From IMG/VR virus record IMGVR_UViG_2728369554_000003: 9,777 bases of DNA, one strand, 5' to 3'. The notes under the pieces are model-generated. The model was not told the DNA's origin and did no database searches. It saw only the letters and a program-made list of their open reading frames with translations. The stretch comes from a virus (lineage: Duplodnaviria; Heunggongvirae; Uroviricota; Caudoviricetes). Shown here piece after piece: positions 1-1,225 of this stretch. How positions within the stretch are numbered: the first letter of the stretch is position 1; the number at the start of each line of letters is the position of its first letter. The translations under genes and the position numbers were made by a program.

Positions 1-505
1 GCGCCAGTCGCCACTGCCGGAGCCTTCATAAGCAATATCAATGGCCACGGATTCGGTCGGGTTAAACTGCACGCCAGCTCCCCACGCCAGAGACGTGTTG
101 CTGTGGCGATCGTCATCACTTCCGGTCAGCACATCGTGCGTTTTCCCCTTGTTGTCAGTTACGCGGGGATAATCCCCGGAGAACGTCGAAACACGGCTGT
201 AAGCCACACCTGCCATCGCATAAGCACTGAACCATTCATTCACGCGTACAGATGGCCCCGCCATCATGCTGAACCAGCGGTTACGCACTGAATCTTCATG
301 CCAGCGGGTATCGCTGTAATGCGTTCTTTGCTCATCTTTGGCATTGGCATAACTGAATGACGTCACCAGCCCCAGCGTGTCCGTAAATTCATAACGGTAT
401 TTCACGTTAATGCCCTTCAGGTCATCACTGCCTGGCATATCAGTATGGGTCTGAAGATACCCGGCGCTTAGTGTGGACTGATGCTCTGCTGCGCTCGCTG
501 GCGTA
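1..505 (-). CDS. lom: Lom outer-membrane protein (Ail/Lom/OmpX family), copy A; 3' end runs off the window and 5' end (signal peptide) is lost in the N gap
   Basis: My own minus-strand translation of 1..505 is open throughout and reads [168 protein letters not shown], which matches lambda Lom as I recall it. The supplied ORF 440..1225 is in a different frame here and is a read-through artifact. Confidence 0.85.
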
Positions 506-760
506 NNNNNNNNNNNNNNNNNNNNNNNNNNNNNNNNNNNNNNNNNNNNNNNNNNNNNNNNNNNNNNNNNNNNNNNNNNNNNNNNNNNNNNNNNNNNNNN
601 NNNNNNNNNNNNNNNNNNNNNNNNNNNNNNNNNNNNNNNNNNNNNNNNNNNNNNNNNNNNNNNNNNNNNNNNNNNNNNNNNNNNNNNNNNNNNNNNNNNN
701 NNNNNNNNNNNNNNNNNNNNNNNNNNNNNNNNNNNNNNNNNNNNNNNNNNNNNNNNNNNN
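506..760. other. Assembly gap (255 N)
   Basis: Uninterrupted run of n characters; non-round length suggests an estimated scaffold gap. Confidence 0.99.
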
Positions 761-920
761 CTTAGCGCCACTGAATGCCACCGCCGGAATAACAATTTGC
801 CGGTCAAACGGCTGATCGTCATAAACCCTGACGGTAATGGTCCCTGATGGCCACCGCTCCGGTGCACGGGAGTCCCGGGGGAAAGCTTTGCCCACTGTTT
901 TAACGAGATCGCCTTCAATC
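761..920 (-). CDS. J: Orphan fragment of the J C-terminal region (allelic copy of 1555..1715), misplaced between two lom pieces
   Basis: Near-identical at nucleotide level to 1555..1715 with a few synonymous differences; minus-strand translation gives ...PAVAFSGAK / [44 protein letters not shown]. Bounded by N gaps on both sides. Confidence 0.6.
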
Positions 921-930
921 NNNNNNNNNN
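921..930. other. Assembly gap (10 N)
   Basis: Run of 10 n; flanking sequences are not colinear (J fragment on one side, lom on the other). Confidence 0.99.
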
Positions 931-1225
931 CGCTGAACCAGCGGTTACGAACGGAATCTTCATGCCTGCGGGTATCGCTGTAACGGGTAAGCTGGCGATT
1001 CTTGTCTCCTGCATAGCTGAATGACGTCACCAGCCCCAGCGTGTCCGTAAATTCATAACGGTATTTCACGTTAATGCCCTTCAGGTCATCGCTGCCTGGC
1101 ATATCAGTATGGGTCTGAAGATACCCGGCGCTTAGTGTGGACTGATGCTCTGCTGCGCTCGCTGGCGTACCAGCGGCAACCAGCCAGACTACTGCGGACA
1201 GAATAACAGCACATAATTTACGCAT
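931..1225 (-). CDS. lom: Lom outer-membrane protein, copy B, N-terminal 98 codons with start codon and signal peptide; 3' end truncated at the N gap
   Basis: ATG at 1223..1225 (minus) preceded by GAGAGG Shine-Dalgarno; translation [98 protein letters not shown], with a typical signal peptide and AxA cleavage site. 931..1165 overlaps copy A (280..505) but has a divergent patch ([10 protein letters not shown] vs ANAKDEQRTH). Confidence 0.8.

Follow-up and report, generated by a model that had tools for sequence, protein, structure and literature searches.

Relatives of Lom

Described relatives of the genes analyzed here include the lom gene of phage lambda and the genes for OmpX of Escherichia coli and Ail of Yersinia. 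In the literature, lambda Lom is tied to adhesion to buccal epithelial cells; its expression in lysogens and its outer-membrane location are reported in work quoted by a 2025 preprint (bioRxiv 10.1101/2025.02.28.640651). According to the same preprint, which suggests superinfection exclusion, cells are protected from lambda-vir, though not from T7, when lambda Lom is overexpressed. OmpX and Ail are eight-stranded, virulence-related barrels. In this family the extracellular loops are the variable, ligand-binding parts, and in OmpX and Ail, as in Lom, variation is concentrated in these loops and the barrel is conserved (PMC3417512, PMC9329534). Sequence and model comparisons give Lom the same fold at about 30% identity, but hairpins 2 and 3 of Lom are longer, by 8 and about 25 residues, respectively. 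Lom is phage-borne, whereas OmpX and Ail are chromosomal, and the known ligands are those of Ail.

The window analyzed here is a stretch of 9,777 nt from IMG/VR virus record IMGVR_UViG_2728369554_000003. It contains two partial lom genes, copy A and copy B. These very probably represent the known lom alleles of two lambda-like prophages, which encode barrels of the Ail/OmpX/Lom kind, differ in a surface cassette and are present as fragments in a chimeric scaffold. Both alleles are already found in reference databases under the name Lom. For copy A, the identity is 99.8% both to Lom of Escherichia phage 2G7b and to an intact 199-aa gene of E. coli Z247 (WP_001518415.1); intact genes at this identity occur in many genomes under the annotation "Ail/Lom family outer membrane beta-barrel protein". 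For copy B, it is 99.4% to WP_001317546.1 from E. coli 20Ec-P-124, which is also intact with 199 aa, and 98.3% to the Lom of phage PhiR55_1. These four genes have the same position after the tail tip gene J and the same two haplotypes of a short variable patch as the window, but the window copies are incomplete and copy A is one base off the Z247 gene.

Lambda Lom (206 aa) belongs to the same family, with an alignment that starts at residue 1 and covers the full length, and its gene likewise lies between J and the side tail fibre gene. The C-terminal 40 residues of lambda Lom and of these alleles are nearly identical. Lambda Lom differs in its strongly diverged surface hairpins, in extra loop 1 residues and in having AASKKSSTVM at the site of the patch; the window alleles are part of another clade, whose proteins have 199 aa. 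The gene is common, i.e., lom was found in 4687 of 5426 complete E. coli genomes, at a median of two places each and a maximum of 14, and in a protein collection the cluster with a B-type 199-aa representative has 24,859 member sequences. Since the median of two places makes two different lom alleles the norm in E. coli, there is nothing unusual in their presence here. As a prophage accessory gene lom is familiar, and the finding has little significance beyond correct annotation.

The two lom copies

The earlier note had described two copies of an Ail/Lom family gene that differ in a short patch. Minus-strand translation and alignment agree with it on the number of copies, the positions and the patch strings (Table 1). 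The family assignment is likewise borne out by a search with the Pfam Ail_Lom profile (PF06316, cut-off 23 bits) and by sequence matches to lambda Lom, OmpX and Ail. Copy A scores 349.8 bits (E 5.7e-105) over profile positions 20–187 of 199, and copy B scores 190.2 bits (E 4.4e-56) over positions 1–98.

Neither copy is complete in the window, and both are without a 3' end. The start of copy A is missing at the adjoining N run and its last 12 codons lie past the window start; the remaining translation is free of stops (TPASAAEHQ...GSGSGDWR, the end also being given as YEGSGSGDWR). Copy B has its ATG and is truncated by a gap of 10 N (MRKLCAVIL...RNRWFS, also given with the end SVRNRWFS). A Sec signal peptide is predicted in copy B, where MRK is followed by a hydrophobic core and TPASA and then by AEHQ, as read from the sequence; it is absent in copy A, from which the N run removes the region. 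The near-identical full-length genes end in GVGYKF, i.e., with the aromatic C-terminal residue that serves as the criterion for an outer-membrane insertion signal.

An ungapped alignment of the two copies covers 238 nt and has 21 mismatches. Sixteen of these are within the ten codons 72–81 and the other five are in the remaining 208 nt. All ten patch codons differ between the two copies, including four that encode the same amino acid, and the sole amino acid difference outside the patch is W87R. Each allele has an intact counterpart at 99.4–99.8% identity, and the difference between A and B is therefore not sequencing noise.

Codon 132 of copy A (window positions 109–111) encodes P in the motif GDYPRVTD at the beginning of hairpin 3. 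The 12 compared 199-aa relatives that bear the motif have L or I at this codon (GDY[LI]RVTD), and P132 in place of L is the only base difference between copy A and the Z247 gene.

Table 1. Positions of features in the 9,777-nt window and of strands in the structural model.
Feature	Position	Strand	Remarks
lom copy A, partial CDS	1-504	-	Residues 20-187 of 199-aa Lom; 168 aa
Variable patch, A-type	319-348	-	Codons 72-81, ANAKDEQRTH
N run	506-760	.	255 N, scaffold gap
J tail-tip C-terminal stray fragment, A-type prophage	761-920	-	98.8% to Z247 J over 160 nt; 96% duplicate of 1558-1713
lom copy B, partial CDS	931-1225	-	Residues 1-98; ATG 1223-1225
Variable patch, B-type	983-1012	-	Codons 72-81, ten residues
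Signal peptide, copy B	1154-1225	-	Ahead of predicted cleavage site
Terminator-like hairpin and T run	1246-1274	-	In 67-nt J-lom spacer, 20 nt upstream of lom ATG; terminator scan, centroid fold
J (tail tip attachment protein), C-terminal 271 codons, B-type prophage	1293-2109	-	Physically linked to copy B
J C-terminal fragment, misplaced, A-type prophage	2120-2234	-	100% to Z247 J (positions 5685-5799 of the Z247 locus); 82% duplicate of 1372-1485
N runs of 10 N (five)	921-930, 2110-2119, 2235-2244, 2849-2858, 3509-3518
N run	7640-7762		123 N
Duplicate pair	268-505 / 932-1169		91% identical
Duplicate pair	765-920 / 1558-1713		96% identical
Duplicate pair	1372-1485 / 2121-2234		82% identical
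Duplicate pair	2577-2848 / 2859-3130		92% identical, 272 nt
Model strands, relative P0008 (residue numbers)	29-33, 48-58, 63-81, 86-106, 111-135, 148-166, 172-182, 187-197		AlphaFold

Composition of the scaffold

The window has seven N runs, and four pairs of diverged duplicates are found beside them (Table 1). Most of the scaffold pieces were sorted by comparison with two complete E. coli genomes, Z247 and 20Ec-P-124. The pieces at 931–2109, 2859–3508 and 3519–7639 are 99.6–99.9% identical to one 20Ec-P-124 prophage (99.6% for the first) and collinear with it, and this set carries copy B. The pieces at 1–505, 761–920 and 2120–2234 are 99.8%, 98.8% and 100% identical, respectively, to a Z247 prophage, and this set carries copy A. 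The order in Z247 is 761–920, then 2120–2234, then 1–505, with 384 nt between the first and the last piece. The gap of 255 N is thus not the real distance, and the piece that belongs inside it has been placed 1.2 kb away in the scaffold. Because the order and spacing of the Z247 pieces disagree with the window, the scaffold is best read as an interleaving of two related prophage tail modules. The suggestion of the earlier note that different prophages carry distinct Lom variants holds in this respect, as the pieces sort into two prophage types with one allele each.

In the reference annotation the genes of the tail module are named tape measure, tail protein, minor tail protein L, C40 peptidase, tail assembly protein, J and Ail/Lom. 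The window would then be a short-read scaffold of a lambda-like E. coli prophage tail module, H-M-L-K-I-J-lom on the minus strand, in which contigs of two related prophages were interleaved and joined by N, each prophage supplying a part of its own lom. Open reading frames that cross N runs (e.g., 440–1225, 2203–3468 and 7634–9664) are partly artefacts; the first of these (261 aa) is an artefact in which N runs are read through as X. Gene order and apparent duplications in a chimera of at least two prophages are unreliable at face value, and the practical lesson of this scaffold is caution over both.

The piece at 2245–2848 is only about 90–91% identical to both reference prophages, over only 325 of its 604 nt, and its overlap of 272 nt with the piece that follows is 92% identical. 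Its source may be a third variant of J, i.e., a third prophage or a mosaic J.

Fold and position of the patch

The alignment of a full-length relative with the solved lambda Lom (9wso_C, E 4e-50) runs from one end to the other, and the relative also matches OmpX and Ail with E values of about 1e-19. The AlphaFold model is not of the window copies themselves but of P0008, a B-type relative of 199 aa that shares 93% identity with copy A. The quality of the model is moderate, with a mean pLDDT of 65.5 and a pTM of 0.54, and strand 1 and loop 1 are below 50. It displays a signal-peptide helix (residues 2–18) and eight long strands. In the fold search the model was most similar to OmpX (1qj9) and Ail (3qra/3qrc), at TM scores of 0.68–0.72 relative to the target. 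Hairpin 2 of the model consists of strand 3, a turn at residues 82–85 and strand 4, and the pLDDT of this block is 73–83.

Both termini are periplasmic in the Ail/OmpX type of fold (PMC3417512), so that the connection between strands 3 and 4 is the extracellular hairpin 2. Residues 72–81 of Lom align by phmmer with OmpX residues 46–52 plus an insertion of three residues, and loop 2 of OmpX consists of residues 49–59 (PMC9329534). A lipid-facing hydrophobic alternation is present in strand 3 (L63, L65, F69, Y71) and in strand 4 (F97, M99, A101, P103, V105); past Y71 and ahead of F97 both faces are polar or charged, as read from the sequence. The periplasmic termini, the OmpX alignment and the end of the hydrophobic alternation together place the patch outside the membrane. 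It should be surface-exposed, lying in the half of strand 3 farther from the membrane, just above the outer girdle of aromatic residues, with the membrane boundary derived from these features.

A surface loop had been predicted for the patch in the earlier note, with a barrel topology prediction as the check. Topology prediction puts it in the outer half of strand 3 on the extracellular side. Extracellular hairpin 2, the counterpart of OmpX loop 2, is thus supported as its location, but the patch is not in a coil loop and forms an extension of strand 3 in the model.

The lambda Lom entry is chain C of 9wso in the 2026 PDB copy ("Outer membrane protein lom", 206 aa), and the label "chain C" implies partner chains. 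A complex of Lom with J was considered and set aside, as 9wso was not among the J matches. The entry was also missing from the reported fold-search matches.

Population pattern of the patch

Eighty-two loci were compared, consisting of 80 from IMG/VR and those of the Z247 and 20Ec-P-124 genomes. The patch occurs as two haplotype families, NA(K/E)DEQ(K/R)TH in 55 loci and GD(K/R)NRQ(L/I)TR in 27. Diversity in the gene has one sharp peak, at the patch: among 63 distinct 597-nt alleles, pairs differ on average by up to 0.254 per site, at codons 71–80, and by 0.005–0.07 per site away from the patch. Fixed or nearly fixed differences between A- and B-types are confined to gene nt 210–242, and elsewhere there are only shared polymorphisms. 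Identical signal peptide and loop 1 sequences occur with both patch types. The use of different codons for four conserved residues suggests an old imported segment and not recent point mutation. We read the patch as a short, old and diverged two-state cassette that would be reassorted by recombination between similar lom genes. Hypermutation of the type produced by diversity-generating retroelements appears not to account for it, since the changes extend beyond adenine positions, there are two states and not many, and synonymous sites differ as well.

Several other explanations of the two copies were considered. One lom gene could have been read twice, with the differences representing assembly or sequencing errors, as might be expected given how fragmented the scaffold is, with its N runs and duplicate pieces. 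Errors would not yield a known alternative allele, however, and here each version is 99.4–99.8% identical to intact genes in many complete genomes, and the 16 clustered differences match two haplotypes that recur across 82 independent loci; this explanation is contradicted and is next to inconceivable. A true tandem duplication in a single prophage (lom, J fragment, lom) would agree with the presence of both copies on the same strand within 1.2 kb of scaffold. It is rejected as highly improbable, because the copies are separated by an N-bounded J fragment of 160 nt in an order that fits neither reference prophage, the piece belonging between 505 and 761 is located at 2120–2234, and in annotated prophages a single lom separates J from the tail-fibre gene. 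The alleles could also be derived from two strains or phage populations in a mixed sample and not from one chromosome, and the interleaved scaffold would appear identical either way. In searches for the source assembly, a degenerate pattern for both patch types hit just three unrelated genomes, and a pattern specific to the junction had no hit among viral contigs. This is unlikely in that one genome is enough, given the number of lom places in E. coli, and one of the three IMG/VR genome ids that occur twice among the loci held both patch types. Two prophages, each with its own lom allele, thus remain the preferred source of the window sequences.

A different possible role for the patch is that of a specificity determinant matched to the receptor-binding domain of the phage's own J, e.g., for exclusion of kin phages. 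The protection by overexpressed lambda Lom against lambda-vir and not T7 (bioRxiv 10.1101/2025.02.28.640651) points in this direction, as do the position of lom directly after J and the location of the diversity hot spot of lom in the patch. Co-variation of the patch with the receptor-binding end of J was not found, however, as the ratio of A to B patches is equal across both fine types of J (29:10 with the Z247-type C-terminus and 13:4 with the 20Ec-P-124-type). When J C-termini are clustered more coarsely, some association with patch type appears, which physical linkage and shared ancestry would explain, and both patch types are also found with other J clusters. Matching to J is accordingly very unlikely. 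The preferred description of the patch is that of a two-state cassette found with either type of J.

Possible function

Lom would most likely be exported by means of its Sec signal peptide and inserted in the outer membrane, where it would form a barrel of eight beta-strands of the Ail/OmpX/Lom kind. The long hairpins 2 and 3 would be displayed at the cell surface and could provide the binding sites, and the cassette would alter the chemistry near the tip of hairpin 2. The function of these alleles may be adhesion or, as suggested for lambda Lom, the blocking of superinfection by lambda-type phages. That the cassette is a long-maintained two-state polymorphism that sets the binding target of Lom, either a host-cell ligand or an incoming phage, is a doubtful proposal at present. 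If it were true, lysogens with both types would gain a broader surface specificity than one prophage gives. Variation within this Lom clade centres on a single small surface cassette, and this makes the cassette a natural starting point for tests of anti-phage activity or adhesion.

The J-lom spacer

The J segment linked to copy B matches solved gpJ structures with E values from 2e-114 to 1e-91. Its stop codon is at positions 1293–1295, and the spacer separates it from the ATG of copy B. Lom is directly downstream of J on the same strand in copy B and likewise in the Z247 and 20Ec-P-124 prophages; judging from the layout of the Z247 prophage, copy A would be linked to a J of its own.

The spacer contains a GC-rich hairpin with a stem of 8 bp. 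Stem variants in the 82 loci are GGGCACC/GGTGCC, GGGCGCC/GGCGCC and GGGCGTC/GACGCC, and all are fully complementary. There are compensatory changes at two stem positions, and a G-T wobble is present in only two of the 82 loci. A search of the spacer for known RNA families gave no Rfam match at E <= 1. The hairpin looks like a conserved terminator or attenuator.

In locus L004 (IMGVR_UViG_2534681810_000012) the region upstream of lom at 4001 contains, as judged by eye, the end of an insertion-sequence transposase-like protein in place of J. The hairpin and the spacer are retained at this locus, and lom persists there beside a disrupted tail module.
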